Assembly: GCF_964204645.1 (NCBI RefSeq)
Contig: NC_134028.1
Location: 9,672,001-9,736,000, forward strand
Direction of reading: 5' to 3'
Length of the DNA stretch: 64,000 bases
From: Tubulanus polymorphus
Lineage: Eukaryota; Animalia; Nemertea
Shown here piece by piece: positions 5,270 to 40,400 of this stretch (its first letter is position 1; each line of letters opens with the position of its first letter). Both the position numbers and the translations under genes were made by a program. The notes under the pieces are model-generated. The model ran no database searches. It saw nothing but the letters and a program-made list of their open reading frames with translations, and was not told the DNA's origin.

Positions 5270-5634
5270 CATGTTACTTCCGTGTTGTTGGAAATCTCGC
5301 GAGAATGGTGCAACATTGAAACTGTCCATAAATGTCAAATTTCATACATTATTTTTTGTACATATTCATCATTATCCGATAAACGATTGCATGTTAACTA
5401 CCAGTATGTTTGGCCGCGATATGGTTGCCTGGGACAGTTATCGTAGTTACCGGTAACCAATCTATTGCTTTATCGCTCATACTGATCGTAAACAGCCAAC
5501 TTTTTCACTACTTTAGTTAACGTTGATAAATAAGCAATATCAATACAAGCTATTTTAGTGATATTTGCAATCTATTTGCCGTTTACATTTTTGCCGTAAT
5601 CTCGCGAGATAATCAACAACCCGGAAGTAACATG
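5270..5634. mobile_element. MITE-like element with 35-bp inverted repeats containing TCTCGCGAGA
   Basis: CATGTTACTTCCGTGTTGTTGGAAATCTCGCGAGA at 5270 is the inverted, slightly mismatched copy of TCTCGCGAGATAATCAACAACCCGGAAGTAACATG ending at 5634; related sequence at ~20482-20600. Confidence 0.55.
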
Positions 5635-5687: not shown

Positions 5688-5809
5688 AGTAATAGGGAAT
5701 ATGTTGTTTCAAGCCAAAGGTCGAAAGGTCGAAAAATAAATTCTCGCACACTCGAATTTATTTTCCAACCTTTCAACCTTTGACTTGAAACAACATATTC
5801 CCTATTACT
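5688..5809. repeat. Left terminal palindrome (hairpin): 56-nt arms, 10-nt loop
   Basis: AGTAATAGGGAATATGTTGTTTCAAGCCAAAGGTCGAAAGGTCGAAAAATAAATTC-TCGCACACTC-GAATTTATTTTCCAACCTTTCAACCTTTGACTTGAAACAACATATTCCCTATTACT; 52 of 56 positions are Watson-Crick pairs. Confidence 0.95.
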
Positions 5810-5873
5810 CTTATAATATTCATATATATGAATAATTTCTAAAATAAATGTTAATAAAAGATATGTTATTAAA

Positions 5874-6209
5874 ATGGAGAGTAAAAAAGTACACAGTGAA
5901 TTCTTAAATAGAATTAAAGATATCACAAATGTAAAATCTGTAGATAATAAATTTAAAAAGTTAACGGAATTAACAATTCATAAGAAATATTTAATTACAA
6001 ATATTGATACAGTTACTAACAAATATGGAGATAGATTAGTTATCCACTTAGAATATGAAGGATTAAAAGGAAATACATTCAGAACATATTTACCAGATAG
6101 ATTTCATAGATTATCAAGTGAAGATTTAGAAGAATTATGTTCTGGAGATTTCTATTTCATATACAAAGGTAAGAATGAAAAAGGGCACCATGAAATAGAT
6201 TCCGAATAA
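5874..6209 (+). CDS. Small viral protein, putative OB-fold ssDNA-binding protein
   Basis: Intact 111-aa ORF whose ATG lies inside the left TIR. The pattern KKLTEL...Y.I...V.NKYGDRLVIHL...YLPDRF...YFIYKG resembles small beta-barrel proteins of Polinton-type elements; the fold assignment is inference. Confidence 0.5.
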   Translation: MESKKVHSEFLNRIKDITNVKSVDNKFKKLTELTIHKKYLITNIDTVTNKYGDRLVIHLEYEGLKGNTFRTYLPDRFHRLSSEDLEELCSGDFYFIYKGKNEKGHHEIDSE

Positions 6210-6223
6210 AATATGTAAAATAA

Positions 6224-7045
6224 ATGGTAGAATTAAAAGAATACAGAATATTTGTTGATTCTAGAAGACTTACTAATTATAAATCACATAATTAACTAGT
6301 ACAATTAGATAGAGAATTTAAGAATTGTGTTGATTTAAAATTAGTAAATATAAATTTATGTAACTCATTTTACAATATATCGAATAAAACTGTTGAACAC
6401 AGAGCCTTTTTAATTTTTTATTAAAAATAAAAATAAATGGGCCTATATATATTTAAAACCAGGGTTATATAATTTAGATACATTGGCACAAGAAATTAAT
6501 AGAAAAGCCTGGCACAAGTCGGGTAATAATTCCGGGTTTAATATTAGATTTTTAAAAAGTGAGAGTTCTAACAAAATAAAGATAAGGTTGACTGATATTG
6601 AAAAACATAAATTTATGGTAAAAAAACCTATAGCTAAACTGTTAGGAATTCCTCCAGATAGATCTTTTACAAATATTGATGCTACACCAAACTTAATACC
6701 TTTTACACACTTTTTTATATTTATTGCAATTTAATCGATCCTACAAAAACATTCGAAGCAACTAAAGATATAACTTGTAATTCTGGTTTATAAAACATTT
6801 TACCATTGAAGAATGTTAAAGAATTTGGAACGCAAATAAATTATAATTTAACAGAATGTGATTTCAAACCATGCATTCCTCAATTTAATAATTTTAAATT
6901 AGAAATTAGAAATCATAATGGATATTTCATTGATTTGAATAACTTTCCTGTGATATATGAATTAGTTATAAGATGTAGAGAGTATTTTTTTCACTATATT
7001 ATAAATGAATATAACTGTTGGACCGAGTATATGTTTTGGGTTTGA
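6224..7045 (+). pseudogene. Minor capsid protein (penton, single jelly roll), disrupted
   Basis: Starts at TAAATG 6221. Reconstructed fragments MVELKEYRIFVDSR, NSFYNI, IYLKPGLYNLDTLAQEIN, AKLLGI and FKLEIRNHNGYFIDLNNFPVIYELVIR are typical penton motifs; contains an in-frame stop and frameshifts. Confidence 0.75.
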
Positions 7046-7349
7046 TTTTAAACATAAACGTAAAGAAATGAGAATTAAACTAAATGATGTAATTACTGAT
7101 ATTAAAAGTAAATCATTTAACAATGCATCAATGATTAATAAAGAAAATTATAATATAGAAAAAGTAATTGATTTAATCAAAACGTCTTTAGAATATTATG
7201 TATTAAATCAAGATGGAATTATCGATGATATTAAAGATATATTATCTAAAATATATGATAATCATAAAAGTAGTAATGAAATAAATGTTGAATTAATCAT
7301 AAATAAGATAACTAAATATTTTGAAGATAGTAATTTTTTTTCTAAATAA
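7005..7349 (+). CDS. Hypothetical viral protein, 114 aa
   Basis: Intact ORF beginning at TAAATG; its stop codon is fused to the next start (TAAATG 7347-7352). Confidence 0.55.
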   Translation: MNITVGPSICFGFDFKHKRKEMRIKLNDVITDIKSKSFNNASMINKENYNIEKVIDLIKTSLEYYVLNQDGIIDDIKDILSKIYDNHKSSNEINVELIINKITKYFEDSNFFSK

Positions 7350-7571
7350 ATGGCGGATCAGAAGTGGATAATAACTGGATTATATAATGGAGCATTATTA
7401 TCAGTGGGAACTGTTGGTTATTCAATGGTATTAAAAAAAGTATTTAAAATGGGAAGTGTTAATATTGATAGATTTGATATAAATGATATCTTAAAATCAA
7501 CGTTAGCAGTTACTTTATCTAATTTAACTATTGATTATTTAGAAAAACAAAAATATATTCCTCCTATATAA
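7350..7571 (+). CDS. Small hydrophobic viral protein, 73 aa
   Basis: Intact ORF with TAAATG start, two hydrophobic stretches and a C-terminal DYLEKQKYIP; followed by a 34-aa ORF at 7572 that also starts at TAAATG. Confidence 0.6.
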   Translation: MADQKWIITGLYNGALLSVGTVGYSMVLKKVFKMGSVNIDRFDINDILKSTLAVTLSNLTIDYLEKQKYIPPI

Positions 7572-7692
7572 ATGCGTAATTATTTACTAAATACACTAGA
7601 TTATATAATGAGTTTAAATGGTAATATAACAGTTGAACAACAAGATAAATTATTAAAAGAATTAATAAATCATTAATTTCTTAATTAAATAA

Positions 7693-8917
7693 ATGGGGTT
7701 TCCAAAAGCTTTCTAATATAATAAATCAATTAAATATAATATTCCTGCAAAAGATTTTAATAAAAATATTACATATAAAAATTTAGTTTTAAATTCATTA
7801 ACTAATTTAGAAATTTATGTTACTGAAACACAGTTTTTTATTTCTAAAATGGAAAATATATTTAGTACATATGAAGTTACTTTTACTTGAGATGAATATC
7901 ATATATATATAAAGTAAAATCTAATATGAAATATTGGCAGAATCAATTAAATTTTGCTGTTTATTGTGCAACAACTGGTTGTGGTATAAGTTGGAATGAT
8001 CATTTGAATAACTTAGATAAAAGTTTGAATAATTATGATTTAAAATTAATTCACACAATATTTACATTTCACACGTATTTTCAAATCAGAATAATATTAA
8101 ATGAATAAGAATGTCCTTTGCCTGGATCTAAATATTTTAAAGAATTGGATAATAATATTAATCTATCTAAGTTTTATAAAATATATAATGAATTTAATAT
8201 AAATATTAATTCCGATTTTAGAGCGCATGGTAAATTGCAAGGTATTGGTGAACAGTATGAAATAAAAAGAATTGATTATATGCATAGAATTGGAGCTTAA
8301 TTTTATTTTAGAAAATAGTGAAGGTTTTACAAAATCAGGCATACAAAGAATAAATCAATCTATTAGAACTTATTTGATATGCATTCTAGGTGCGCAAGTT
8401 GAAACAAGAACCCCAATATTTGGAAATGATAATACTTCATTTGATACACAAAAACAATTCAAAGTTTTATTTGGAGATTCCATTCATAATGATAAAAATA
8501 CATCGATTCAGGTACCAAAATTATTTAGATAAATCACACATTAGATTAAATTATTGTATAGGCCCTAATCTATTAACTATTTATAATGATTTAGTATTAA
8601 AGATGGGAAATATAATTGGTTATAATAATTTAATTAAGACTGCAACAATAAATAATTCATTTGGATTGAATGATATAGATAAAAAGATTATAACTGCTCC
8701 AAAATTAATGGAAGGTGAAAAAATTAAAAAACATATTCAATCAACAGAAACTAAAACTAAGAATATTAAATTAAATAATGATTCTAAAATAAAAGATTAC
8801 AATACTACAGAAAATATTCAACATGACATAATTAAAACTGATAATGATAATAAATCCCATGAAAATGCTAAATTAGCTATAACTTGTATAGGAATTGTAA
8901 TAGGAGGAATATTATAA
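7693..8917 (+). pseudogene. Conserved-looking Polinton-like virus protein (WQNQLNFAVYCATTGCG motif) with C-terminal hydrophobic anchor, fragmented
   Basis: TAAATG start at 7690. ORF-track pieces 7926-8108, 8118-8300, 8272-8532 and 8390-8917 are collinear fragments; ends with LAITCIGIVIGGIL. Confidence 0.6.
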
Positions 8918-8945
8918 ATTAGATTTTAATTTTTATAGGATATAA

Positions 8946-10397
8946 ATGGAATTAGAAGGTGGAGAAGCTTATGAAATGGGAGAAATGGGAAATAATAATG
9001 ATGGGTATATTGATGATGATTATAATGATGCTGAAACTAATATTGATAATGATGATGGATCAGCATATAATTCTAATTTAGCAGATAGTGGTTCTAAAGG
9101 ACTATCAACAGATGAATTTGATAGAAGAACTAAATCGAGAATAAATCCTGAAAATAAAAATCCAGATTTAGTAAAACAAAATTTAGAATATAATGAATAT
9201 ATTTGTACTTTCAAACCTATATTTGAAAGATCAGGATATAATATCAATGATAGAGGTGCTTGACTTTTAGTACAAGAATGAAAATCTTTAGATGGTGAAT
9301 ATTATTATTATTTGAAAGATGATTATTATATTGATATCACTTATAATCAAAACAAAATATTAGAAGAATCAACTTTGAGTAATTTAGAACCATATAGAAT
9401 TAAAAGAATAAGTAATAGTAATGAAATAGAAAATGTAACACATGAAGAAATAATTCAAAATAAAAGATTATTTAAACAAAGAATTAATGACTTATTTGAA
9501 ACAATCAATGATAATTTAGAACCAGAAAGAACTTCTGAACAGAATATAACTTCCAAAACTAGTAAACTTAAATCAAATAAAGTACCAATTGAAAAACTTT
9601 TACCAAATGGATTACTTGATGCAACAGATCAAGAATTAGAAGATTTAGATATATTTTCTGATAAAGCAATTAGAGAAATTATTAGTATAAGACTTGCATC
9701 TGATAAAATTGCGCATGATAAAAGTATAAGAGATTTTTAAATTAGAACTTCGGAAAAAGATAGAACTGATAAAATTAAAGAAATAGAACAACTAAAATCA
9801 GATAGAGATAATAAAGTTATTGAAGAAATTGAATTTAAAAAAAGAAATGCATATTTAGAAAAAGAAAAAGATGATTTAGAATATAACATAGAATTTCAGA
9901 AAGAAGAAATTAAATTATTAAAAAAATCACATGATTATAATATTAATAGATTTAAAGTTATTTTTAAAGATTTGTTGATGAAACCAAATTCTGAAATATT
10001 ATTAAAAGATAGAATAAAATTATTATTTCAATTAGAAGGTATCACAATTCTTTCAATTCTAACAGCTGTAACTATGGTATTTACAACAATTGGTTTAGCA
10101 ATATCAAATTCATTAAAATCTACACCTACTCCTAAAAAACCTGATAAACCTCCGAGTAATAATAATTCTATACAAGATAAAGTTGAGGATGGTTTAAAAA
10201 AATTAGCAAAATATTTATGGGAACTATCTAAAAAATCTGCTGCAGCTTTACCCGGAGTTATTGCATCAATTGTTGGTTTTATATTGAAATCTGCAGGAAA
10301 CATTATTAACTTTGCTGCTGAAAATATTATTTTATTTTTAATTACAGTTGTTAGTGCAATTATTTTTGGGTTAGTGAATATGATAAAAAATAGATAA
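8946..10397 (+). pseudogene. Large viral protein: acidic N-terminus, coiled coil, C-terminal transmembrane/amphipathic helices, fragmented
   Basis: TAAATG start. Same-frame pieces 8946-9263, 9312-9740 and 9972-10397 are separated by stops; hydrophobic segments EGITILSILTAVTMVFTTIGLAI and AAALPGVIASIVGFIL...IILFLITVVSAIIFGLV. Confidence 0.6.
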
Positions 10398-10416
10398 TTG
10401 ATTTTTTGTTAAATAA

Positions 10417-11480
10417 ATGAGTGGGAGTTATATAAATCCTTCTAAGAATTCAAGAATATCTAATGCTATTAAAGCAGAGAGATCTCATCATATAATTACT
10501 CATAATCCTTCTAATAGTAATTCTGATGAAACTTTATATGTAAGAATCCCCAGATTAACACAAAATACTTTTTATGTTCCAAATAGTATTTATTTATCAG
10601 CTTATATAAATGTTACTGGTAATAATAATAATTATGTTGTTGATTATGTTGGAAGATATTTGATTAAAAAATTAACTATAAAGATTGGTCCAGAAACAGT
10701 TTTCTCATTAGATGATTATAATTTATTTACGCATTATAAAGATTTATGGTTAACAAAAGAAAATAGAAATAATATGATTTTCCAAGGCATGCAATCAGAA
10801 AATCAAAATAAATTAAGATCAGGAGCTAATGACGCAATAGTAACTCGTACTGCAGATAATTTGATTAAAAAGATTTATGGTAGTAAATATAAAATTCCAT
10901 TAGATTTTGAATTGATAAATAATAATGCACCTTTATATAAATACGCAATTCAAGAAGATGTTATATTTGAAATAACATTTGCTCCTGAAATTGTATTATC
11001 TAGCGTTGTTAAAGATATGGGTTATAAATTATCGAATATATGTTTAGAATATGATACAGTAACTGATGAAAATATTGCTAGCATAATTCAAACTAAATAC
11101 AATCAAGGATTTTCATTATTATATGATTATATTGATAAATTTAAAACTGTAACTATTAATGCAAGTGATGAAATTATTAATGAGAATATTATCTTCCCAA
11201 GACGATCTATTAAAGGTATATTAATATTTTTTACCATTGCAACATATTCTAATGGCGCAAACAGGTCGATAATTATTATAATCCTGAAATAACAAAAGTA
11301 GAAATAACTATCGAAGGTATAGCAAATAAAATATTTTGTCAAGGAATGAGAATGATAGATCAGTGGCCAGAAATTAGATAACATTTTATGAATGAAAAAG
11401 TAAAATCATCTGAAAATTGTAATATTTATCAAATTGATTATTATACCGGTAATAAATATGCACTATGGTTAGATTTCAGA
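10417..11480 (+). pseudogene. Major capsid protein (double jelly roll, Polinton/adintovirus hexon-like), frameshifted and 3'-truncated
   Basis: 291-aa ORF (ERSHHIITHNPS...ETLYVRIPRL...YKIPLDFEL...YKLSNICLEYDTV) continues after a frameshift at ~11270 as YYNPEITKVEITIEG...QGM...KYALWLDFR, then breaks off at ~11480. Confidence 0.85.
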
Positions 11481-11481
11481 T

Positions 11482-12072
11482 GTTTTACCTTCTACATCAA
11501 ATAATGAAATAATATTAAATATTAGTGAAAATAGAAATTATTGTGGCTACTGTAAAGGTGAATTTTCAAACAGTCCATCAAATTGGAATAATCATATGAA
11601 TACAGCTACACATATTACTAATGTAATAGAGCCTGTTGGTATAAGAGAATTTATAGAACACCCATTTAGATATGTAACAAAGTTTGTTTCAAATAAAAAA
11701 GTAAAGATTCATATAAAGATTCATTAGGTGAATTTTTATCTAAGGAACGTAGTAATGATAAATTAGATTTATCTGCTGCTAAACAAATATTAGGATCAAA
11801 CATTGTAAATTAAATTTTGGAGTTAAACACTAAGAAAGATGACAATGAAAATATAGTTACAGGTAAATATATTGATTATAATGATGAAGGTATTAAGAAA
11901 TCGAAAATAGAAGATAGAAGATATAAGTCAAGATAATGCTCAAGTTTTATCAAAAAACGATTTTAATTTGGCTGATTGTGAAAATGATTCGGTAGATATG
12001 TTGAATAAATTGTTAGGGTATGATGATGAAAGTGATTCAGATAGTAATGATAATTATCTAACACGCACATAA
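11482..12072 (+). pseudogene. Remnant ORF with C2H2-type zinc finger and acidic tail
   Basis: YCGYCKGEFSNSPSNWNNHMNTATH at ~11538-11613; 5' end missing (abuts the truncated MCP); stops and frameshifts downstream. Confidence 0.5.
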
Positions 12073-12133
12073 TATATTAGTTGAAAATTGTATAAAATCA
12101 GAGTTAATAAAAAAAGGGGTTTTAAGTATTTAT

Positions 12134-12177
12134 GTATCTAATACGTATCTAATACGTATCTAATACGTATCTAATAC
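12134..12177. repeat. Tandem repeat (GTATCTAATAC)x4
   Basis: Directly visible; lies in the gap where the + and - gene blocks of the virus converge. Confidence 0.9.
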
Positions 12178-12195
12178 ATCAATACTTGAAATACC

Positions 12196-12811
12196 TTATT
12201 TTATAAATTTATATTCCTATGGAAATTGAAGCCTCAGAAGTAATTTTGAACCTTTATTATTCTTTGATTTATTCATATATTCATCATGTAATTCAGTAGG
12301 TATAATTTGATTGATTTTCTTCCAATGATTGTTGCATAGATTTTCTATCTTTGTTATAAAATAAAACTAGAAATCTTATATTCTCCCTAAAATCTTTAAC
12401 AATTGAATTATATTTTTGATTTAAAACCCATGTTGTTATCCGAAAATGTCTCCCAGAGAAAGCTAGATAACATAACTCACTTTCACTCACTTTTGAATCA
12501 TGTAAATTTGCACAATCATCTATAATTGATAATGTATTTGATCCTTTATAAATATCAATTGCTATTTCAATACAATTATCTAAATTTTCTTTTACTGTTT
12601 TAGGATCTAATATAAAAAACTTTTTTATCTTAACTATATCTCTATTATATGTTTTATTAATTTCATAAGTGGGGCAGAATAATATTATATTATCAAAATG
12701 ATTCTTATAAATAGTTTCTAACAAATCTAATATGAAATGTGTTTTACCACCGTTGGTTACCCCAGTAACTAACATATTATGCGGTTCAAATATAAATAAA
12801 TCTTTATTCAT
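12196..12811 (-). pseudogene. A32/FtsK-HerA family DNA packaging ATPase, frameshift near C-terminus
   Basis: Walker A GVTNGGKT, Walker B IIDD, downstream FSGRH and LNQKY motifs; TAAATG start; frame continues as IIPTELHDEYM... after a shift at ~12310. Confidence 0.9.
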
Positions 12812-13880
12812 TTATTCTTTTAATTTTACTAGATAAAATCCATTCATTAAATTTATCATCGTACCCTTTATATTTCACCAAAGAATACTTTTTTCCTTTA
12901 AGAGTTTTTGTTTTCAATACTTTTTCTATTTTGTATTCTATTTCATCTGGGTTTGGAAAAGTGATAATTCTTGTTCATAGAAATAACCTAATATTTCTTC
13001 ATCTTTTAAATCTTCTAATTTATAAACAAAAGGTTTAGTTAATATTATCTTTATAATCTTGAAAATTTCTTCTGTAAAATTAGGAGTATAACCTTTATAA
13101 AATGTTTTTCGATATTTAGATATTCTAACATGTTGTCCAATTTTAAATATAGGTTCTCCGAAATCATGTGTAACAAACGCACCATATAAATTATTCCAAA
13201 CTATTTCTGAATTATCTTCTTTTCTAGCTTGTATAGGTTTCATATTTATAGAACTATGTTTAGAATTATTATAACCTTTCACTAAATCATCTAACACATC
13301 GATATATTTATACGTTTCATTAGCAGTAAAATATTTCCACATTCTAGTTTTCAATGTTTTATTAAATCTTTCTATAATAGATGCTTTTTTATCTGAGTGT
13401 GTGGAAAAATAATCTACATCGTTATCAGATAATAGTTTTTTTGAATGTTTATTATAGAATTCTTTACCTTCCTCAAATTGTATCTTGTCTGGAATAGCTT
13501 CTTTAAATATTGATTTAAAAGCATTTGTTACTTCTATACCAGTTTTATTTTTGATTGGAATTGACCATGCGTATCTACTGAATATATCTATAACATTTAA
13601 TATCCAGAAATATCCTTTGTTGTGTTCTTCTAAGTTCTTCATATCAATTAAATCTGCTTGCCATTGTTGATCGATATATGAAACCGTAACTTTTCTTGTT
13701 AAATAAGTTTTATCCATTTTCTTGTGGATTTGATTGATTTTGTAACCATAATCTTAGTTCACTATATTTTATATTTTCATTATCAGATTTAATTTTATCC
13801 CATAATTCTGAAACGCTAGAATATGATACTTCACTCTCTGGGTTATAATATAAATCTCTTAAATATTGTTCTTTTTTCAT
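12812..13880 (-). pseudogene. Retroviral-type (rve) DDE integrase with C-terminal chromodomain, disrupted
   Basis: N-terminus MKKEQYLRDLYYNP from 13880; core WQADLIDM, IDIFSRYAW, QFEEGKEF (second catalytic Asp appears as Glu), IERFNKTLK. After a frameshift, EYKIEKVLKTK...KYSLVKYKGYDDKFNEWI is a chromodomain. This layout is typical of Polinton integrases. Confidence 0.92.
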
Positions 13881-13887
13881 CTTATTT

Positions 13888-14247
13888 TAATCCATTAATA
13901 ATAATTTAGATTTAGTTTCAATGACTTTATGATTTGGCTTATTTTCTGGTATAATAGGTTTATCATCGGAATCATTATTGTTATTAGATTTTGATTTATA
14001 TATTACACCGGATAATATAATAATTGTGATTAACCCAATTTTAATATACAAGTAATTATTTCTTCCACTATTAGAAGAATCAGATGGATTATCATTCGAA
14101 TCAATATCAGATAATTTCTGTGATTCATTTATATCAGTTAATTTCTTTTTCTTAGCTTTTTTTTAATTCTGCAGATCTTTTACCTAATTCCCTTGCCCAT
14201 TTAATTTGTTTTTCAGATCTAGGCTTCTTCTTAATATCATCACTCAT
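13888..14247 (-). pseudogene. Small basic single-pass membrane protein, frameshifted in an A-run
   Basis: TAAATG start; MSDDIKKKPRSEKQIKWARELGKRS / ...YLYIKIGLITIIILSGVIY...LLLMD*. Confidence 0.55.
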
Positions 14248-14255
14248 TTATTTTA

Positions 14256-14850
14256 GTTAATTTTTGTTCTGATTCATTTTCTGTTTCACCGTGTGGGTGT
14301 TGTACGGCACCATCTGTTTCGTTCTTTTACCTGATTTATATTCTATAGGCTTGATATTCGAAAATGTTATGACACCAGTAGAAATTAATGTCATAACCGA
14401 TCCTAATTAGAATGAAGCGTATCCAACCCATTTTTGTAATTCAGTCATAACTAAGTAGTCATTTTTTAAATCACTATATAATTTATTTTCATCATCAATT
14501 GGTATAATCCGTTTACATAATTTTGAATAACATTTGACAATACCATCACTTATAGAGTCATTTATTCTAGCTAATCTTGACTCTTCATAAATCTTAAAAT
14601 ATTTTATTACTTTATCTGGTTTCATGGCATCTAGTTCTTGATAAGTTACAATTTTTCCCAAGAATTCTTTAGATTTCCCTCCGGCAATTAGTAATTCAAG
14701 ATGGTGCTTACAATATAAGTAGTATTCATAATCAATATTGTTATCAACTTAAGCACAATTAGTTACAACTGCATCATTATCGCCGGTAATGCCCAAATCC
14801 TCAATTGTCTTTTCAATATCAGCATTATTTTTACTCGATTTCTTTGACAT
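14256..14850 (-). pseudogene. Hypothetical viral protein with C-terminal hydrophobic segment, internal stops
   Basis: TAAATG start at 14850; reads in frame through ORF 14407-14661 (GKSKEFLGKIVTYQELD...LKNDYLV) with two premature stops. Confidence 0.55.
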
Positions 14851-15097
14851 TTATATTAGAGAAAAAAGCGAAAAAAAATATTATAAGTATTATAAAATGA
14901 TACTAATAACTCTTTAGGTTAATACTTAATTGACTAGGTTAGTTAAAGTTAAAGAATTTTTATTCAAACCCATTCAAAATCTATTTAATCTAGTGTTAAC
15001 AAGAATTGCAAAAGAAAATATTAAAAATATAATAGAAATAATGGATAGTTGAAGTTATTGTTTTTTTTATTATATTTTATTTGAGATATATTAATCT

Positions 15098-15827
15098 TTA
15101 ACCACTTATTAAAGACTCAACGTATTGTTCATTATTTGGATCATTGTTCCATATTTCAATAAATTTCTTTGCTTTATCCAGTTGATCCAAATATAATTTC
15201 ATATCAAGTTTGTTTCCTTTCCTAGTATGTTCAACTTTTTTTAAAGGTCTTAAATTCTGCCAGCTCCAGATTAATTTCTGATTGTGTTCATCATTCATGT
15301 TGAATTTAGATATTGGTAACACGTGATCAATATGAAAATAATCTCCATAATTATCTATATTCATTTTTTCATTGAACTGATATATAATCCATGATTTGAG
15401 AAATTTATCTGTACAACCCAACAAATTAGATAGTGTAACTGAATGCTTTTCTTTAATGAATAATTGTGATAATCTATTTCTCAAACATTGTTTCATTTTA
15501 AAATTAAGATCTGTTTTGTATCATTCTCTCATATATTCTGTCATATAATCACGGTTATCTTTTTTCCAATCTCTCATGTATTCTGGGTATTTGCTCGCCA
15601 TTGTTTTTTCAATTCTTTACATTTTTCTAGATTATTTATATAATATTGTTTACTATTTTGATTATGGCAGCTTTTGCAGTTATGGCGTAAACCATCATTG
15701 CCAATCTTACGTTAATAATAATCTGTTAATGGCTTACTTTTTTACATTTACAACATGTCTTCTGATAAATATTTATAACAACAGTATTGTTTGTAATATT
15801 GATAGTTTGTGATTGTTCTGACTCCAT
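15098..15827 (-). pseudogene. HNH endonuclease of the giant-virus/endonuclease VII-like type with N-terminal CxxC...CxxC
   Basis: C-terminal ORF has LLGC...WI.YQF...M..DNYG.YFHIDHVLP...NLRPL...KGNK; the disrupted N-terminus from TAAATG at 15827 contains KTCCKCKK and NCKSCH. Confidence 0.8.
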
Positions 15828-15978
15828 TTATAATATATATTTTCATTGAAAATTGTTTAACATTTTAGAATCCTCTTCCATTTCTTCGACTAACGTCATC
15901 CTTTTTCATTTCTCGCTGCTTTTGATAAGTCATTTCGGATCCTTGATATCAAAATCATACCATTTGCAATATCCGTGT

Positions 15979-16154
15979 CGCATGCGCACTGGGCAAAAGC
16001 GCGCATACAGGCGCGCTTTTGATCAATGCGCATGCGCTTATCATAATTATATATTTATTCAGTAAAATTGAAACGACCGAACATAGAAAATTCAAACGCA
16101 TGCGCACTGGGCAAAAGCGCGCATACAGGCGCGCTTTTGATCAATGCGCATGCG
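15979..16154. repeat. Two identical 58-nt GC-rich hairpins in direct repeat (15979-16036, 16097-16154)
   Basis: CGCATGCGCACTGGGCAAAAGCGCGC-ATACAG-GCGCGCTTTTGATCAATGCGCATGCG; 23 of 26 arm positions pair. Confidence 0.9.
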
Positions 16155-17028
16155 CTAATCATAATTGAAACGACCGAATAAAGAACATTCACCAAGCTGC
16201 GCCTACAGATTTACACAATACATATACAAGTATGTTCGGTCGTTTCATCCAATACATCATTTGATTTCTATATATCAAATTTATATTTACAAACATTTTT
16301 TCAATTGCCGGTAAATATTTAACTATATCAACAAATGTTAAACTTAATCATTAGAATTTTTGGAGTAGTCTAAATGTTTTTGAATTCTTATATAGTTTCT
16401 TCGTCGATCTTTGTGTTTCTTGTGCTTCTACGCCAATTTCTATTGGTTCGATACCCATTGCTGTCTATTCCTCAGAAAGAGTATCTTGAGTTTCTCTATC
16501 GCTTCTTGACGCGTATGACATTTTATTAATCTAAAAGATATTAGTGGTAACTCTAGCTATCTAAAAGATATACTAAATATAAATATATTTAAAGGTTTCA
16601 TATTTAGTAGCCCCCCCCCCTTCCCTACTTCATAATAACTACAAAAACAGTACTTACATTTAGAACTGTAAACCTTAACTCCGAATTGTGTTTCGATAGA
16701 TAAATCCTAAGCGTTCTGTATATGCCGTCTGTTCAGTAAGAGAGCGGCGATCCAGTATGTGTAATACATACTTGCGCAACAGTAAATATCAGAGGTATGA
16801 ATCATTATGTCGCAATTAATACATACTCATCAGGCGCCGTGTGTCACTATGGCAACTATAGCAACAGGTGTTTTTGTAAAAAATCAAGAGTCATGTATTA
16901 TAATATATTGATTTTACATGTTGGACAGTAGTACTTCTTATTTGCTTCCATTTTAATATCAAATTTTTTATTAAAATTGATTTTAGAAATTATTCATTTA
17001 TATGTTATTCATATATATGAATATTTTA

Positions 17029-17168
17029 AGAGTAATAGGGGTTCAGGTTAAAGGTTGAAGGGGCGAGTGAGTAAAAAATGAAAAATAAATTCGAGCGTGC
17101 GAGAATTTATTTTTTATGAGCTCGACCGTTCGACCTTTGGCTTGAACCCCTATTATCCCTATTACTCT
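17029..17168. repeat. Right terminal palindrome (hairpin), inverted counterpart of the left one
   Basis: AGAGTAATAGGGGTTCAGGTTAAAGGTTGAA...AAAAATAAATTC-GAGCGTGCGA-GAATTTATTTTT...TTCGACCTTTGGCTTGAACCCCTATTA(TCCCTATTA)CTCT; the loop is the reverse complement of the left loop with one difference. Confidence 0.92.
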
Positions 17169-31236: not shown

Positions 31237-31474
31237 CGATAAGTGAGATCTCAGGTTGTTATATATATACTTTAGTTTCTTCTGGTTAAGAAATCGCGGA
31301 AAGTACAATTTTGATGGCATTTTCCCTTTTAAAACTGTTTATTTTTATCATTATTATTATTATTATTATTATTAATTCAGATAATGTCTAGTCGACACAA
31401 CATCCACTTCTGATGAAAAAAGGTTTCTGGCATCTCAGACTGGTAATAGATTTTCATCGATTTTTTTCTTCCAG

Positions 31475-34400
31475 AAGGAACAGTGCTGCCACCAATAGGT
31501 GTATTTTGGGATATCGAGAATTGTAATGTACCGCGAGGGAAGTCGGCGTTGAATGTCGTCAACCGAATTCGAGAATTATTTTTCGCCGGATTCCGCGAAG
31601 TCGAGTTTCTCTGCGTTTGCGATATCAGTAAAGAAAATCGTGACGTTATCGAAGAATTGAACAACGCTCAGGTAAATATCTGCAATACCTCCCAAACAAT
31701 GAAAAACTCAAAAAAAAAGCGTACCAGTAGTTTTAAGCGCAATAAGAGTTCACTTTTCGTTTGTCATCCGCCTATTCATAGATGGAATTTAGTTAATCTG
31801 AGAAGTTTTAGTAGATAATTCAATGAATTGTCTTGATATTTGATTTGTACATGTATCTATCCCCTCGACATATCTACAGTCCCACAATTGGCCAGTTCAG
31901 AATCGAGATGGCCATTGATATCGATATAACATATCTGATAATTTCTTTATGTTTCCGGTTACTGAAATAGAAATTCATGACATTGTTTCACAGTTTATAG
32001 GCAAAACTTCATCTGGATGGGATGAAATCCCTATGTTTATTTTTAAACAGTCTATCGAGCATATTTGCAAACCGTTAATGCATGTAATTAACAATTCATT
32101 TGTTACTGGTATTGTCCCATCGGGTATCAAAATGGCTAGGGTAGTCCCTGTTTATAAATCCGGTGTTATAAATAATGTGTCCAATTACCGCCCCATTTCA
32201 CTTTTACCAGCATTTTCAAAACTTTTTGAAAAAGCTGTTAGCAACAGGTTATCTTCTTTTATTGATAAACACAATATTCTCTCATGTAACCAATTCGGTT
32301 TTCGAAAAGGTCTCTCCACGTCACATGCTTTAATCGCATTTACTAATTACATCACTGAGAATCTAGATAATGGAAAATTTACTGTTAGTATCATGCTTGA
32401 TTTAAAAAAAGCATTTGACACTATTGATCATTCTATATTATTAGACAAGTTGTATAGTTACGGAATTCGAGGTGTTGCTCATTCATGGTTCAAATCCTAC
32501 CTCACTAACCGCTTACAGCAAGTGTCGTTCAAGAACTATTTATCTGATGTCAGTCCCATTCCTATAGGGGTACCTCAGGGTTCCATCTTAGGGCCCTTGC
32601 TATTCATTTTGTTTGTTAATGACATCGTTTATTCTTGTAATTTAAACTTTTTACTATTTGCTGACGATACGACTGCCATTAACTCTCATTCCGATCTGAA
32701 TATACTGCAATCAAATACTAATGTTGAGCTCACTAAACTGTTTAACTGGCTAAACTCCAATAGGCTATCTGCTAATCTGTTGAAAACGAATTATATGCTT
32801 TTCCATAAAAAGATCAATATTCTTGATGATATCGACCTTGTAATGGGTAATGTTTCAATAACTAGAAACAGAGAAACAAAATTCCTTGGTGTAATAATTG
32901 ACGACAGCCTAACATGGAACTCCCACATAAACAAGCTGTGCTCTATTGTTAGCAGAAATATTGGTGTATTAAGAAAAGCACGACGTATTTTTCCTAGATC
33001 CGCGCTCATCAAGTTATTCAACGGTTTCATCCTTCCGTATCTACAGTACTGTAATATCGTCTGGGCATCTAATTATGTAACTAGGTTACGACCCCTTATT
33101 TTGCTTCAAAAACGCGCTATTCGCATTGCTAGTGGGGTAAATTTTCTAGAACACACTACTCCACTGTTCAAAAAGTCGTATCAACTCAAACTTCAAGACA
33201 TCAATGTGTTCCAAAATTCTGTACTGATGTATAAATCTGTCCATGTGTTGCTGCCTGTCAAATTGTCCAATAGTTTAATTCGTATTTCTGATCTTCATTC
33301 CCACAACACCCGTAACTCTAATCAATTTCGTTTACCTTATTACAGAACCAATATCAGGATGTTTTCTCCTAACATTAATTGTATTAGAGTCTGGAATTCT
33401 CTTCCAACTGAACTTCAGCAAGCATCCAACATCGATATATTCAAGCGGAATTTGAAAAGACATATAATAGGATTGTATTAATACTTATCATACTTGTGTT
33501 TAACATCATGTCCATCCATTCCGCCAGGGCATTAGGCTTTTTTTCATTAAAAGTATACCCCCCTTTGGGGTCCCTTTTTGTCCTTTTTCTTTACTACGCT
33601 TTACAGTGTAGAAGTACTTTCTGTAACTTTTCTTTTATGTAATAGTGATGACTGTATTTCTGTATTGTATCTCTTTAGTGAAGAAATAAACTTATTATAT
33701 ATATTATATATATTGATAGCCATTGGTGCTAATCATTGATACTCCTTTGTTCCATACTATTTGTATCAATTGTGATAAGTCCCTGTTGTTTAGAATAGCT
33801 GAATACATTCATTGCCTAATATTACCTATTGTATCAAGAAGTTGAATCAAAGATCCTGTCACGATTACATTCCGCAAAGTGAATTGACAGGCCAGATCCT
33901 TAGTCAATGCAGACTAGTGTAAAGCGTACTTACAAGGTTATTATGCCAATTTAACGACTAATGTTCTACAAGTTAGTCAGCGATACAAGTTTTGAACTTA
34001 AATTTTCATCATGCAACTGGGCCCCATCAACATTAGCCAAAGCTGAAGGTTTATTGTTGATTGTCAGGAGCCAATTGCTCAAAAGTAATCACATTGACAA
34101 CGAAATTTGAATTGTGTTGCTATTGCTACTATACCAGGATAGCAACTCCAGCGGTTGGCTTCAAAAACCGATTTTGAGCAACTGACCCATGCTTATCACT
34201 TTTCCAACAACTCGTAACTTGGTGCGTTGTTTTTGAACGAATGTCTTGCGTTCCACACAGACCTATATTGAATATTATTTTCAGGTAACGGTAGTACATA
34301 TAAATGCTACGAGTAAGAACGCAGCCGACGATAAATTGCGTCAATGTCTACGCCGTTTTTCTGATACGTATACCCCGCCTGCTACTGTTATACTTATATC

Positions 34401-37400
34401 AGGTAAAACAGCAAATGATATGCACCACGGTCAAATACGTTACCAATCTCAAATCTTGAAAATATTAAAGCTTGGGACGCACAGGCAAATTTCATCAATA
34501 CATTATTCACATGACGTATTGAGTTTTGCCAAATTTTGCCTAGTGCGCTAAGGCTGATTGATGTGATACAAATTTTAGTTGCTGATTGCTCAATTTTCCC
34601 AGTGTGTGACCTCCAAATAATTGCGACGAAAAAAAAATTATACTGAACCATGTATTTAAATCATGGTGAATTCGTGGTCACACCAAATTCACTGTGTCAA
34701 CCTTTGTCTCCTGAATTCAGTGTCAGACGAGTTATACAGCGAATGATTTACGAGAAAAATTGACGTCGTCTGTCACAAGCTTAAGTTCTGATACAAGTTC
34801 TGAAGTTCAGATACTATATTTATATTGTTGACTGTTTAGGTGATGTAAATTTCGCGTCGGAACTGTCTGATTTGAGACATCGCCATGGCTTTCGTATCGT
34901 CGTCATACATAATAAGAATGTGCCGGACGCGTTGTTAGCGTGTGCTCATATTCACCATGCGTTTGAGAAACTAGTCACCGATTTACCGGAAAAACAACCC
35001 CGGGTAAGTTATCGCTTGAATGATTTATAATGTACATGTAGGCCCTGTATAATATTTATAACACATTTCACTTAATTCGAATCTTTAGGGACCGTAAAAA
35101 TGTTAAAAATGTGTCCAACCAGAGATATATCTGAGTAGGATGTTAAGTATTAAATATATACTAGCCTATAGTGTCGCAAAAAATATTTAAAAAAAACATC
35201 TGAGTTGCCCGGTTATCCGAGTTGGATGGAGTCTAATGTATGTATATTATTTTATTACTATATTATTGTGTCCTCAAATTTATCTAATTAAACACTTCAC
35301 TAAGGTATGTTTTGATAGTTCTCTATACTGATTCTGGAATTCTCTTCTGGTGCGTTGGTTCGTTTCGACCAGTAGGCCTATATATATATTATTTAGTTAA
35401 TGGTCAGGTGAGCTACAAGACCATTGGTCTTTTATTCTTGTACTGTGCTGAAAATTGCATATGTCGATGCGCGGCATAGTTTTGCAGTTATTTTCTGCGG
35501 AGCTGTGATGATAGCGCCTCGTTTTAGTAACACGTGAAGCTCACCAAAATCAACGAAGCCGTTAATCTTAGATAAACGATATTCTTTTAATAAAAAAAGA
35601 TTTGAACTAAGATTAATCATGCATACACCCGAGATTATCTTGACAAAGAAAACGTTTGTATCGATATGCAGATGAATTTTAAACAATTCTAAGTCGCATT
35701 AACAACACAGGTCGACCAATATTGTGTAGTATACAGTTGAATTCGAACGCTGCATTAGCTACGGCTTACTCGCTACGATCCTGCCTCTGCGGGGGTTCGT
35801 CTTGTTTACCTCTGCCTCTCCTGTGCGCTACTGCTTGACGCTAAGGTTTATGATGAGACAGGTACGTAACAGGGTGGCCGCGATCCACGCGCTTTCTAAT
35901 AGGGCGTGAATTACACTGCATTGCCGTTAGAATGATACTACAAAGGAATGTGGACTGTCGCTTCTGTCCGGCGAAAAATATCGCTCACACGTACATATTG
36001 CTTACGTCGAACTGATCTACTGTAGTTTGAGAATAGATAGAGAATTCATTAGAATGTCGAACTTGTTACTAACCCGACCACACAGAAAGAATCTTTTTAG
36101 TTGTAAAATGTTTATCGGTTCATTTCTTAAACTGCCGGGTCTGCTATTGATTATTGATCATGGTTTAAAAAAGTAATGTACAGGGTAGATAGGTGGCCGG
36201 CTGTGTCAACTTTTAAGCTCAGCAATTAGTGGAGAGACAAGGTATCAATTTTTTAGCCTTAGGTCTTGGCTTTGAATCGTGAAAATCCTGACAGAGTCTG
36301 TATAGAACTTAGAATACTTTCTCATCTCCAAATACAGCTAGATTTGATTTCGGCTTCAGCAACAAAAATATAAATATGACATCTGAGATACCTTTGGTTT
36401 AACGAAACCCTATAATTTATTAGGAGGCTTATAATTTATAGTGATTATATGTATCTCATTTCAAAATCTATTAGGCCTACTTTAGATATGTTATGTATTT
36501 ACCTTCTCTTCCTTGTATAAACAACTGTTTGTCATTTAAAATCTAATTACCTTATACTTTTATAACATGCATTTCCTTTTTTGTCAATTATAAGCTGAAA
36601 GAGCACCTTACTAAACCAATGTATGGTCTAGTATGGTGGATATGATTAACTTCTTCAATTAACTAACTTCTGCGCTGAATCTAACAGTGCCCATGGGCAC
36701 CTTGTTTTGCTTCAGAGTCAAATTGATAACCAAGAACTGTTGAATTGGTTTGGCATCGTTACTGCGGCTTAGGCCTATAACCTTTACATAATGATGCATT
36801 TTTTTACAGAAATCTTCAGTGGGTGCAGTTGAGTTACTGGTTACACAGTTACCAGTAAATCAACCAATTGGTGCTTTACGAAATCGCTTGAAACGTCTAT
36901 CTGATAACTGTGGTGGCAAAGTTATCAGCATTAACAGCCATACATGTTCAGCAATCATTAAATTCCAGAATCTTGATTCTGCTGCAAGGTTAGTTCAATT
37001 TTTCGGAAATTCAAGTCAAGTTGTTTGTTCCCCATGCGGACGGATTTTGGCTCGGGTTAGCGAGTCTATGTCAATGGTCTGGCCAATCGATAATCAGCGT
37101 TCGCGTAGAAAACAGTCGTGTACAGTGGCGTGGTATAAGATATCGCCTTATACCCTCGCGTTCACTGCGTGTATGTATCAGTCAACGCGCGCTATGGTGT
37201 ATATTGCGCGTAACAACAATTTGTCTTGAGTGAAGATGTAAGCTTGCCTGCCTCTAAAAGCAATCCTATTATGAAATTATTAAAAAACATGGCAGTGGAT
37301 AAACTTTATTTCGTCAGTAACTGGCACCGGCCTCAAATTTGCATAGACTTGGTCACTCATAGTTTTATTTGTTTTATATGTCATTCCAGGGATGTATTAA

Positions 37401-40400
37401 AATAAACATTAATTTGTTGAGATAAAAATTCCCAGAATCAATTTTTCGAAGATTTCATTCTCGTTAAAGTCAGTTACCACTGACCAAATTGAGTCCTTTT
37501 TGATGTATTTTTTCTTTTTTAATTTTCAATGAAATAAATTTTTGCGTACTAGTAGCCTACGTGACAAGTTTTTTACTTCACACCAGTTTAGCAAGCCACT
37601 GGACCATTGGTCCTTTATTTTATAATGATTGTTTATCTGAATTGTTATGAGTTTCAAAATTAATTGCTAAAATCATTTATGATTGATAGATAGGCTGATT
37701 TTATGTGGAGTTGTTATCTCAACATTAATTTAGAAATTTTTTTCATTAATTCAAAAATTGATTTTCCCTCGAAATCCACCGCCGTCCTGGGGACATCATT
37801 TATGAAAAACAAAAAATTGATCTCAACGTAAATTCATTTCCTATATATAAAAAGTTTTTCACGATTTTATGCCGAGGAATTCATCGAAGTATTTTTCCAT
37901 GTTTATAAATTCTATTGAAAATTTAAGACTTTTTGAAATGAATAGAAATAAGATACTTGAATTGAATTAATATCTGAATTGAATGTATTGAGCAGTATTA
38001 TGGGAACCACTGACCCATTACTTAAGCACATTTATATTCACCACACAGTGAATGCTCTGCTTCAGTTCACTGTGTGTGGCCTGGTGGTGCTGGTCACATG
38101 CATTGAGCAGATAGGTTTGGCTCTAACTCTTCATTCAGCATTCAGTCCAAATTTATTTCAAGCTACCCTCATAAAGTAGAGTTTCATTCAACTGAAATGT
38201 GAAATAGTTTTACAAACTGGCTACAGTTACTGGAATTACGAAGGGTCAGTTATTTTTCTATCACTGCTTCTCAGTGGCCCTCAAGGGTGAGTATGATAGT
38301 TACTTATGAGTATATTTGTTATTGCAGAGCTAAGAAAAGAATGGACGGTGAAGATGTGTTCAATTCGGTAATTAGCGTTGATTTTGCTCCTGCCGAGCAG
38401 AAAAAAGAAGCTAGCAACAATTCGACGATTAAACCGGAAAAAGTTATCAGTAAGTCCTCACTCGCCAAGTATTGTTCTTTGTCTTTAGAAACCACCCCGG
38501 ATCTACCGGCCACAACGGTGATTAAGGATTTTGGCTGTATATAGATTATTGAGGGTAGATATCAACAAGTTCCGAGATGAAATACGGATGTTCTGTTCTC
38601 AGAAAAATCTGATGTAATGCACTGACGGTGGTTCATCAGACACATGGGTTTGTTGATGGGCTTGGATTGCGTGTTTTATATGGTTGCTTGGATTGACGCC
38701 CTATGTATGGCTTTGATCTGTGATCTGTAACTGTGACTTACTGGCTGGCACAAGTAAGTGCGCAGGCGTTTTATCCCCTTGTGATTATATTATAGAAAGA
38801 CAAGGTTGGTAATAGACAAATGTCTACCATAGCACTGGTGGGAAGAACACATCTATTTCTCGTTTCTGGGTTCCAGAGTAAGGAAAGTATGAAAGTTTTC
38901 AGTCTAAATTCAAGTAACCATGGGGATATACACCATCCTAGCCCATAGACATACCCCTGTGCATCAGAGGGGCATCATGTCAGGGGTTGACTGTGTTAGG
39001 AAATCGGTACTTTTTATTGTAGCCCCTAGACGGCGGCGGCGTCACAAGTCTGTTCCATCGACTGGTAATCGCAGTAAACAAGAAACCAGTGGTAACCTCA
39101 ATGATGGTAATCCTGGCAACAGTAATCAGACGGACAGTCATAAAGAAACAACAAAACGCAAAAATCCAAAATCTCAACCGAGTCCTGAACGTCAGGTGAG
39201 TGGGATTGAGAAAGTAGTCGCAACCATTCTATACTCACGAATCTGATGGTAAACTGTGCCTCGGCCCTTGGTAGACCGGGGCCTTTGTCAGATTGACTTA
39301 TACACAGGGTCCTTACGGCTCATTGATTCCTCAAAAATTCCAAAACGAAAAAGGTGCTTGAAACCCCGTTAATTTGAACAAAAATGTCCAAAACTCCTTC
39401 AATTTTGAGAGAATGGCAATTTATTAGAATTTTTTTGTCTTTTTATAGTTGAAAAGTAGACTACCCCTACCCCTATAGTACCCCAGACAATCTTTGAAAT
39501 TTTCTCCTTTAAGCAGGCGCGGATTCAGACGCTAGCACTGTAGGCACATGCTACAGATTTTCAGAATTTTAGAATGTTCTTTTTATTTCAAAATGCCCTT
39601 TTTGGTTTACCTTTGTCAGCAGTATGAGGTTGGCATTGAGCCAATTCATGTAAAATCGCGGTACGTTTTTTTATGTGAGCATTTTTTCATTGGTTCTCGG
39701 GTTAAACAACGTATAATGGATGCGTTTGAAGGCATGACGAACCTCCGTCGATGACATGGTCAACTTTGTTTAAATTCGACGAAAAACTGTTTTTGGTGGG
39801 AAAATTCGTAGCTCTTGTGTATAAAATTGCAATGACCTCGATTGGGGGTGTCATCTGTACGAGCGAATGTGATTCAATGTGATTGACTCATTTTGGGTAT
39901 ATGCGGGGAATTCCGGTGCTACTAAAATAATTATGGGAAAGCCATTAATGGCGAACGTTTCATTGGACTAGGTGCCGTATATGTGCGAATTTTAAACGCT
40001 CATTGCTGGTGAAAATATAATTATTTCACATATCGCCATAGGTATTGTTTCAATACCTGGTGATTGTGTTGATTGAGATTGAAGTGAAGCAAGCATTCAC
40101 TAAACAAGGCCTCCACGTGCGTGGGAGTGCTAGACATTAGACTGTTGCACTCACAAACACACGCTCATACAGGCACTATATGGTGATCTGCTGTAAAGCT
40201 GCTTGGTGCGAATTTGTAATAAATTGTAATTTCTTGTGACCTGAAAATACTAAGCAGCAAACTATAGCTATAGGTCGAGGTCTGAATATTGTAGTGGTAA
40301 ATTCCAGGATTTAAAATGATCTAATGCTACGCCCCTGTGTTTTAGCGTCCGTGGCCATACATTGGAAGAGGTTTCGTTCCTAAGACTCAATATTCAGCCA

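Follow-up and report, generated by a model that had tools for sequence, protein, structure and literature searches.

Can a Polinton resident in an animal germline fend for itself, or does it depend on a large cytoplasmic virus? The autonomy of animal Polintons, as against such dependence, is an open question, which we address here through an element at positions 5688-17166 of a 64,000-nucleotide stretch of DNA from the nemertean Tubulanus polymorphus (NCBI RefSeq assembly GCF_964204645.1, contig NC_134028.1, positions 9,672,001 to 9,736,000; hereafter the window). A first, sequence-only reading had described a polymerase-less, self-priming satellite that borrows both replication and transcription from a pox- or asfar-like helper. 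We find instead that the element is one member, decayed and with deletions, of a Polinton family with many copies, and that the polymerase-less system is an artefact of this deleted copy. The family itself is likely to be self-replicating and self-integrating, with most of its genes transcribed by the late machinery of a pox-like helper.

A decayed copy of a multi-copy family

The element forms an AT-rich island in an animal genome, with a GC content of 0.21-0.27 in its 1-kb bins from 6001 to 16000, compared with 0.31-0.47 elsewhere. It begins with AGT at 5688 and ends with ACT at 17166, and its two terminal repeats are about 80% alike, with insertions and deletions. Depth and breaks come from a second sequencing run labelled as the same species (X5), whose raw reads were used at 85% likeness. 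The X5 depth is 300-840 across most of the element's bins, against 8-19 in low-copy flank bins, implying tens of copies in the species. The right terminus is marked by loose ends of reads, 1,711 and 1,836 in number, whose flanks are mixed. At 17166 the 1,836 X5 reads continue into mixed sequence (agreement 0.34), which points to a true element end and to many insertion sites. The left end first proposed, at 5688, stands, and the right end, first placed at 17168, is corrected to 17166 by the read ends.

Two internal breaks show uniform run-on, with 535 reads at 11480 (agreement 0.95) and 563 at 16904 (0.94), and over 16673-16871 the depth is 48, compared with about 450-950 in the bins directly to the left. 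The window copy must therefore be unlike most of its sister copies at these places. Most of its genes also carry stops and frameshifts, as seen when intact relatives are aligned onto it; these relatives (L001 onward) are the best 80 of 203 confirmed metagenome loci. Relative to L002, 918 bp are absent near 7590, and the gap at 11480 amounts to 578 bp compared with L001 and 629 bp compared with L004. The internal deletion near 11480 noted from the letters alone is therefore real. It was also suspected of having removed replication genes, but a gap of about 0.6 kb is too small for a polymerase. Adding three gaps to the 11.5 kb of the window copy gives an estimated full size of about 17.0 kb, a figure summed from parts rather than read as one sequence, and this is an ordinary size for a Polinton.

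No target-site duplication was found at the window copy. The flank to the right of the element is a host repeat with a second occurrence at 472, and an inverted repeat resembling a miniature inverted-repeat transposable element (5270-5634) adjoins the element on its left. Rearrangement between copies may account for the absent duplication.

The family polymerase

A search of the window by tblastn with 120 related polymerases, together with a profile search, gave nothing credible for the body of a protein-primed DNA polymerase (pPolB). The sequence-only reading had reported no trace of such a gene; its first 16 codons, however, persist on the minus strand, directly inside the right repeat, in an open reading frame (ORF) that starts at 16951 and ends at the 16904 read break. 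With the Met1 residues paired, this stub aligns to the N-terminal zinc finger of P0100, a full pPolB of 1,365 residues that is 35% identical over 1,238 columns to a member of Pfam DNA_pol_B_2. Eleven of 17 columns are identical, giving a score of 56. P0100 is the top match of the stub among 1,576 proteins, and shuffled stubs reach at most 46 there (60 trials). Against 120 pPolB N-termini, a score of 56 was reached by 0/2,000 shuffles and by 0/2,000 shuffles with the cysteines held fixed. A further polymerase, P0244, retrieved after the first match, agrees with the stub at 8/11. The last zinc-finger gene of L002 was also considered as a pPolB start, and was rejected because P0244 begins differently.

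Contig sizes link the same polymerases to the nearest relatives of the window copy. A size of 16,883 bp is common to L002-like capsid, ATPase, F4 and kinase genes (99-100% identical) and to the pPolB P0098, and sizes of 7,090 and 7,154 bp are common to the F3 cluster of L004 and the P0100 cluster. Three further capsid-pPolB ties of equal size (10,613, 12,994 and 10,208 bp) occur in the sister subclade, and for three capsids whose contigs measure 11-14 kb (P0007, P0009 and P0061) there is no equal-size pPolB tie among the 120 matches listed. All these ties are matches of size in bp, not contigs read through. In L005, which belongs to the same capsid clade, the end of a pPolB lies 1 kb from the capsid gene. 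A search with this L005 fragment leads to a group of 16 close polymerases, 15 of which (P0097 was left out) form one clade with L005 in the pPolB tree (support 100). An AT-biased pPolB subclade of four members (support 100) parallels the subclade of 11 capsid rows, likewise AT-biased, to which the window copy belongs.

Across the wider family the core genes are constant, and close to the right repeat lies a gene for replication, which is pPolB in L005, L027, L034, L035, L037, L057, L061 and L072. In L017, L030 and L031 the same core is accompanied by a superfamily 1 (SF1) helicase protein of 1,060-1,200 residues in place of pPolB, a swap of the replication module. In the window, the low-copy stretch 16673-16903 takes the place of a different sequence in sister copies, which is probably the polymerase. 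The stub of 16 codons, the break in the reads at 16904 and the contig ties of equal size together make it highly probable that the family, about 17 kb long, carries pPolB inside its right repeat and that the window copy has lost it. The sequence-only reading would, by its own account, fall to full-length sister copies with pPolB between the capsid and ATPase genes. That case has very nearly arisen, and the borrowing of replication is thereby refuted: the family does encode the enzyme, although beside the right repeat and not between those two genes.

The TAAATG start motif

If replication is the family's own, what of transcription? In the window, TAAATG stands at 10/13 of the gene starts supported by homology, compared with 29/428 of all ATGs in the element; the ATG at 7572 was excluded from the start count as a likely product of deletion. 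Three starts depart from it: that of the integrase and those of the repeat-edge genes (SSB-like, for single-strand DNA-binding protein, and pPolB), reading TAAAATG. The capsid tree, a quick IQ-TREE search with support from the SH-like approximate likelihood ratio test (SH-aLRT), places the window in an 11-row subclade (100) inside a 54-row clade (97). Across 14 loci of this clade the motif is found at 45 of the 50 conserved gene starts. Outside it, TAAATG occurs at 1/294 starts, and at 1/48 in loci of GC content up to 40%. The motif is present from 20% to 44% GC, and it is kept in L005, which has 44% GC and a pPolB, so that neither AT richness nor a lost polymerase accounts for it.

The motif has a characteristic upstream context. 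T prevails from -15 to -12 and is present at -12 in 43/50 of the clade starts. The vaccinia late promoter, as described in the accessible part of PMC5294985, comprises a T-rich core, a spacer of 5-7 bp and then TAAAT(G/A), and the same portion of that source gives TATA-type initiators for the late promoters of African swine fever virus (ASFV). The fusion of TAAAT to the start codon, with a T-run upstream as in vaccinia, therefore favours a pox-like over an asfar-like helper. We consider that TAAATG and the T-run probably act as late promoters of the poxvirus type, on the evidence of their sequence and spacing. The TAAATG starts first noticed in the window thus extend to the whole clade, and the suggested borrowing of transcription from a pox- or asfar-like virus is strengthened by the clade-wide motif and its T-run; it is still an inference, in which the asfar-like half has become less likely. 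The SSB and pPolB genes lack TAAATG and start at matching places just inside the left and right repeats; more tentatively, a promoter of their own, carried by the repeats, may serve both.

Several points weigh against the reading of a self-replicating family transcribed by a pox-like helper. No virion, transcript or helper virus came to light, and scans of IMG/VR with the capsid gene, the capsid alignment, pPolB P0100 and the F4 alignment gave no matches. A kinase scan gave one unrelated contig, L083 (37%), whose long ORFs lack TAAATG starts, and hence no lead to a helper. The loci behind the TAAATG counts are related, and the counts represent a single evolutionary gain, so that a Fisher P value overstates their weight; three of the 14 clade loci (L012, L016 and L059) were placed by capsid identity and are absent from the tree, itself a quick search with SH-aLRT values only. 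About half of the TAAATG motifs overlap AATAAA. The link to pPolB comprises a 16-residue match, read ends and equal contig sizes rather than one contiguous sequence; the stub match was first noticed by eye, and so was not blind; and sister copies of the window's own family are known from reads, not from intact copies read through.

Could the family instead live autonomously in the nucleus, its genes read by host RNA polymerase II, with TAAATG either a compact, lineage-specific arrangement of poly(A) signal, stop codon and start codon or the leftover of an ancestral tie to a helper that has since lost its importance? It encodes pPolB and an integrase itself, tens of copies lie in the germline, no helper emerged from the IMG/VR scans, and AATAAA overlaps about half of the starts, with A at -5 in 23/50. 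Moreover, core genes of coral polintoviruses are reported to be expressed, with no helper named in the available part of the source (PMC11131425), which implies that animal Polintons can run on host transcription and counts against a helper here. However, the remaining half have TATAAATG or TTTAAATG and no AATAAA. The motif is also found on genes in divergent orientation (L001), and in just 1/50 of the clade starts was the motif flagged as the stop codon of an upstream gene. Its range of GC content, and its near absence from sister lineages with the same core genes, also speak against this reading. Finally, a TATA box that abuts the start codon would place the RNA polymerase II start inside the gene. 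We therefore regard host transcription as the main rival, though less likely than a pox-like helper.

A helper of another kind with the same TAAAT initiator, whether a large DNA virus of the cytoplasm outside the poxviruses or some other cytoplasmic element, is much less probable still. Related motifs, TAAAT or AAAAT, have been reported upstream of iridovirus polymerase genes and, to our knowledge, the promoters of most marine large DNA viruses are not known. Nevertheless, it is the poxvirus late promoter in particular that is matched by the fusion of TAAAT to the start and by the T-run at a 5-7 bp spacing.

Terminal palindromes

The left terminal repeat (5688-5878) opens with a palindrome of 122 bp (5688-5809) with 56-bp arms, and the right repeat (16947-17166) closes with one at 17031-17166, which is more decayed. 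Both fold far below shuffled sequence, with z values of -15.6 and -9.1 for the better strand. In the left arms all four mismatches pair as G.T on the minus strand; the right arms have five transition mismatches, every one a G.T pair on the plus strand, in addition to five transversions and some insertions and deletions. At both ends, the better-folding, G.T-paired strand is the one whose 3' end is terminal. This pattern suggests selection on the fold of single-stranded DNA. Decay at CpG sites was considered as the cause of the asymmetry, since two of the four left mismatches lie at CpG, and was rejected because the pattern of outer C and inner T recurs at the right end and in a solitary palindrome at 2277-2525; the asymmetry must therefore predate the insertion.

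That solitary palindrome, inside an ADAMTS-like gene, has arm motifs like those of the element ends, the G.T polarity of a right end (6/8 transitions) and a z of -9.7, and is probably one terminus of a diverged relative. Among other loci, the distant members L037 and L072 have repeats that form no fold (z -2.4 to +0.8), whereas a strong hairpin (z -12.5) lies at the contig end of L064. L072 is a repeat-bounded relative with, at 1875-1885 and 17157-17167, AGTAGT ends and a flanking direct repeat of 5 bp, not 6 bp.

The hairpins remarked on in the sequence-only reading are thus real, and their geometry permits self-priming, but since the family encodes pPolB they are no sign of a need for a helper polymerase. 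A polymerase-less, self-priming satellite, supplied by its helper with both replication and transcription, is accordingly scarcely credible: the window copy and the 11.5-kb contig of L002 lack a detectable polymerase or helicase body and the 3'-terminal strand folds best at both ends, but the pPolB stub, the 16904 read break and the pPolB contig ties of both nearest relatives contradict it, and the L002 contig stops before the end of its element.

Virion, integration and accessory genes

The major capsid, ATPase and integrase genes assigned in the sequence-only reading hold up. Pfam searches of 23 ORF pieces recovered the Pox_A32 packaging ATPase (E 1e-10), a chromodomain (5e-6) and, weakly, an HNH endonuclease (0.027); rve reaches 9e-7 in the window, under its curated cut-off, and passes the cut-off in L001 and L002. 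The major capsid gene (10417-11483, plus strand) has a frameshift near 11260 and is cut at 11480. It has 59 relatives in the protein collection, the nearest being P0001 at 76% identity, on which the capsid was modelled, since the window gene is cut. The P0001 model (pLDDT, the predicted local confidence score, 90.5) matches the double jelly-roll capsids of Singapore grouper iridovirus (SGIV) and Paramecium bursaria chlorella virus 1 (PBCV-1) with Foldseek E values of about 1e-15, those of Mavirus and Sputnik ranking below the large-virus capsids (PBCV-1, iridovirus). By sequence, the capsid matched no solved capsid in the PDB. Family capsid genes also occur on short contigs in bins of bacterial metagenome-assembled genomes (L081, L082), and 'Bartonella' hypothetical proteins (P0046, P0047) are among the capsid matches; all four are likely mis-assigned (mis-binned) eukaryotic viral DNA.

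The other plus-strand genes begin at the inner edge of the left repeat with an OB-fold gene (5874-6209; 34% to gene 1 of L002), likely encoding a single-strand DNA-binding protein. The model of its product is of low confidence (pLDDT 54), and its best matches are mostly OB folds, with LEF-3 at Z 5.1; these agree with the putative SSB of the sequence-only reading and are consistent with that identity without proving it. A putative minor capsid (penton) gene follows (6224-6982), broken by stops and frameshifts, with an intact L002 homologue of 254 residues and no Pfam match. Next are an ORF of 114 residues (7005-7349) with no assigned function, whose N-terminus matches L002:1333-1710, and a small conserved protein of 73 residues (7350-7571; family F5, 30 loci; 89% to L002). 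The C-terminal remnant of F56 (7572-7676) marks the place where about 0.9 kb, comprising F6 and the start of F56, is absent compared with L002. F4 (7693-8920) and F1 (8946-10400) are broken conserved genes of about 440 and 480 residues. F4 has a predicted C-terminal membrane segment, and F1 a coiled-coil-like middle and three hydrophobic segments. Beyond the capsid gene lies a remnant of the accessory zinc-finger gene F37 (11503-11703), about 0.6 kb having been lost between the two.

On the minus strand, the A32-type ATPase gene (12196-12811; 81-82% to L001, L002 and L004) has a frameshift near its 3' end. The rve integrase with its C-terminal chromodomain (12807-13880, start at 13880) is spread over three frames. 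F54 (start 14247) and F3 (start 14850) are broken conserved genes with no assigned function (13887-14850). The broken HNH gene (15098-15827) varies in position among sister copies, a joint from 15953 to 15116 being seen in 258 reads. Between this gene and the right repeat, a GC-rich 70-bp duplication with GCGCATGCGC palindromes (15979-16166) lies within the AT-rich element, and one of its copies is skipped by many reads (joint 16089 to 16205).

F4 is the most widespread of the genes that lack a known family, with relatives in 3,082 clusters (50% identity) at E<=0.001. In L002 (2996-4321) it has invariant Cys, His and Gln/Asn residues, and a PDB profile search, the ESM Atlas and Pfam on 28 relatives gave no family assignment. 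It is a candidate for an unrecognised enzyme or virion protein. No maturation protease was matched by Pfam in 16 ORFs of L002 or in the conserved ORFs of the repeat-bounded L037 and L072; a divergent protease may be present among the conserved genes without a known family.

Deoxynucleoside kinases are typical of large DNA viruses. One is encoded in L002, the closest intact relative (10343-10981; Pfam E 2e-31), with three close relatives at 60-67%, and one such kinase is fused to a pPolB of the clade (P0089). Relatives outside the TAAATG clade, at L061:5749-6387 and at L014:6543-7049 and 2448-2858, carry genes for VLTF3-like late transcription factors (E 1e-16 and 6e-4) and a Bcl-2 gene.

Elsewhere in the window, exon-like pieces at 1739-2958 resemble an ADAMTS-type metalloprotease (ADAMTS_CR_2, E 9e-5, under the cut-off) and include a zinc-binding motif that we take to be of the metalloprotease type. 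Exons of a MARF1 gene (NYN, RRM_MARF1 and LOTUS) span 31450-49494, and a reverse transcriptase ORF of a long interspersed nuclear element (31919-33478) lies within this region.

Comparison with known systems

By the Polinton criteria set out in the available parts of PMC8097293 and PMC8502044, the element resembles Polintons or Mavericks (polintoviruses, adintoviruses) in its pPolB (at the level of the family), rve integrase, A32 ATPase and double jelly-roll capsid, in its AGT...ACT terminal inverted repeats, in an inferred length of about 17 kb and in its many germline copies. It differs in its palindromic ends, in the clade-wide TAAATG, in several conserved genes without a known family, in the absence of a 6-bp target-site duplication at the window copy and in the absence of an adenain-type protease by Pfam in L002, L037 and L072.

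The closest analogue is Mavirus, the virophage of CroV in Cafeteria, which likewise has its own pPolB and rve integrase, a latent provirus and the late promoter of its helper; this promoter lies upstream of all Mavirus genes, pPolB and rve included, according to the part of PMC6723459 that was available. The present family differs in its animal host, its pox-type motif and a capsid fold nearer to those of PBCV-1 and iridovirus, and its helper dependence is a prediction.

Polinton-like viruses (PLVs) associated with entomopoxviruses are animal elements proposed to be poxvirus parasites (Barth et al. 2024, PMC11296320). By the description in the accessible text of that paper, they share with the present family a replication gene beside the terminal repeat and mosaic replication genes, here pPolB or, in outgroup loci, an SF1-helicase fusion. 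Unlike the present element, all four are described there as encoding a cysteine protease; two combine a tyrosine recombinase with a D5 primase-helicase, and in the other two no integrase was detected. Their sources are occlusion bodies or insect genomes, and the main text of the paper never mentions the word 'promoter'. Like the hairpin telomeres of parvoviruses and poxviruses, the present ends are imperfect terminal palindromes with the 3' end paired, so that priming would be possible. Unlike those viruses, the element is integrated, no HUH/NS1 protein or telomere resolvase was detected, and its family encodes a protein-primed polymerase. Pox-associated Polinton-like viruses and virophages with helper promoters are thus already known, whereas we found in the open literature, subscription papers, Repbase and supplements lying outside this scope, no account of a clade-wide, pox-type late promoter in animal Polintons that bear an integrase and pPolB.

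A proposed life cycle

How might such an element persist? Once excised or copied out, the integrated Polinton would be replicated from its terminal repeats with a pPolB and SSB of its own; the A32 ATPase would package it, and its rve integrase would insert it again. The provirus would stay silent until a pox-like helper infects the cell, whose late machinery would then switch on the capsid gene and most others, and capsids would be made in the cytoplasm, as for Mavirus with CroV. In a family with its own pPolB, the hairpins would most probably serve to restore a duplex origin or to prime second-strand synthesis on single strands that have been displaced or excised, although this is a weaker suggestion. 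It is possible, if rather less secure than the helper-type promoters themselves, that an animal Polinton clade has here turned to the life of a virophage, keeping a polymerase and an integrase while lying dormant in the germline until woken by an undiscovered pox-like virus of invertebrates.

The depth in a further run from this species, X1, may bear on this cycle. The X1:X5 depth ratio is 111-356 over the element core, compared with 3-23 over host flanks and repeats; relative to host repeats, the X1 depth of the element (5804-14679) is 15-30 times that of X5, and one X1 contig at 8023 has a depth of 5,509 against about 40 in the flanks. These values may fit a replicating sister genotype, although summed contig depths are not a copy number and library bias is possible. 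X1 also contains an 83-kb contig of unassigned nature.

Implications

Calls of polymerase-less elements are evidently unsafe when made from single decayed copies or cut contigs. The shift of the start motif from 1/294 to 45/50 on one branch of the capsid tree makes the question of a helper testable by sequence: the motif names the type of helper to be sought, a pox-like one, and predicts 5' poly(A) leaders at TAAAT. If the proposed life cycle is true, the provirophage model of Mavirus and CroV would be extended from protists to animal germlines, and each provirus would be a fossil record of past helpers and possibly an inherited antiviral defence.

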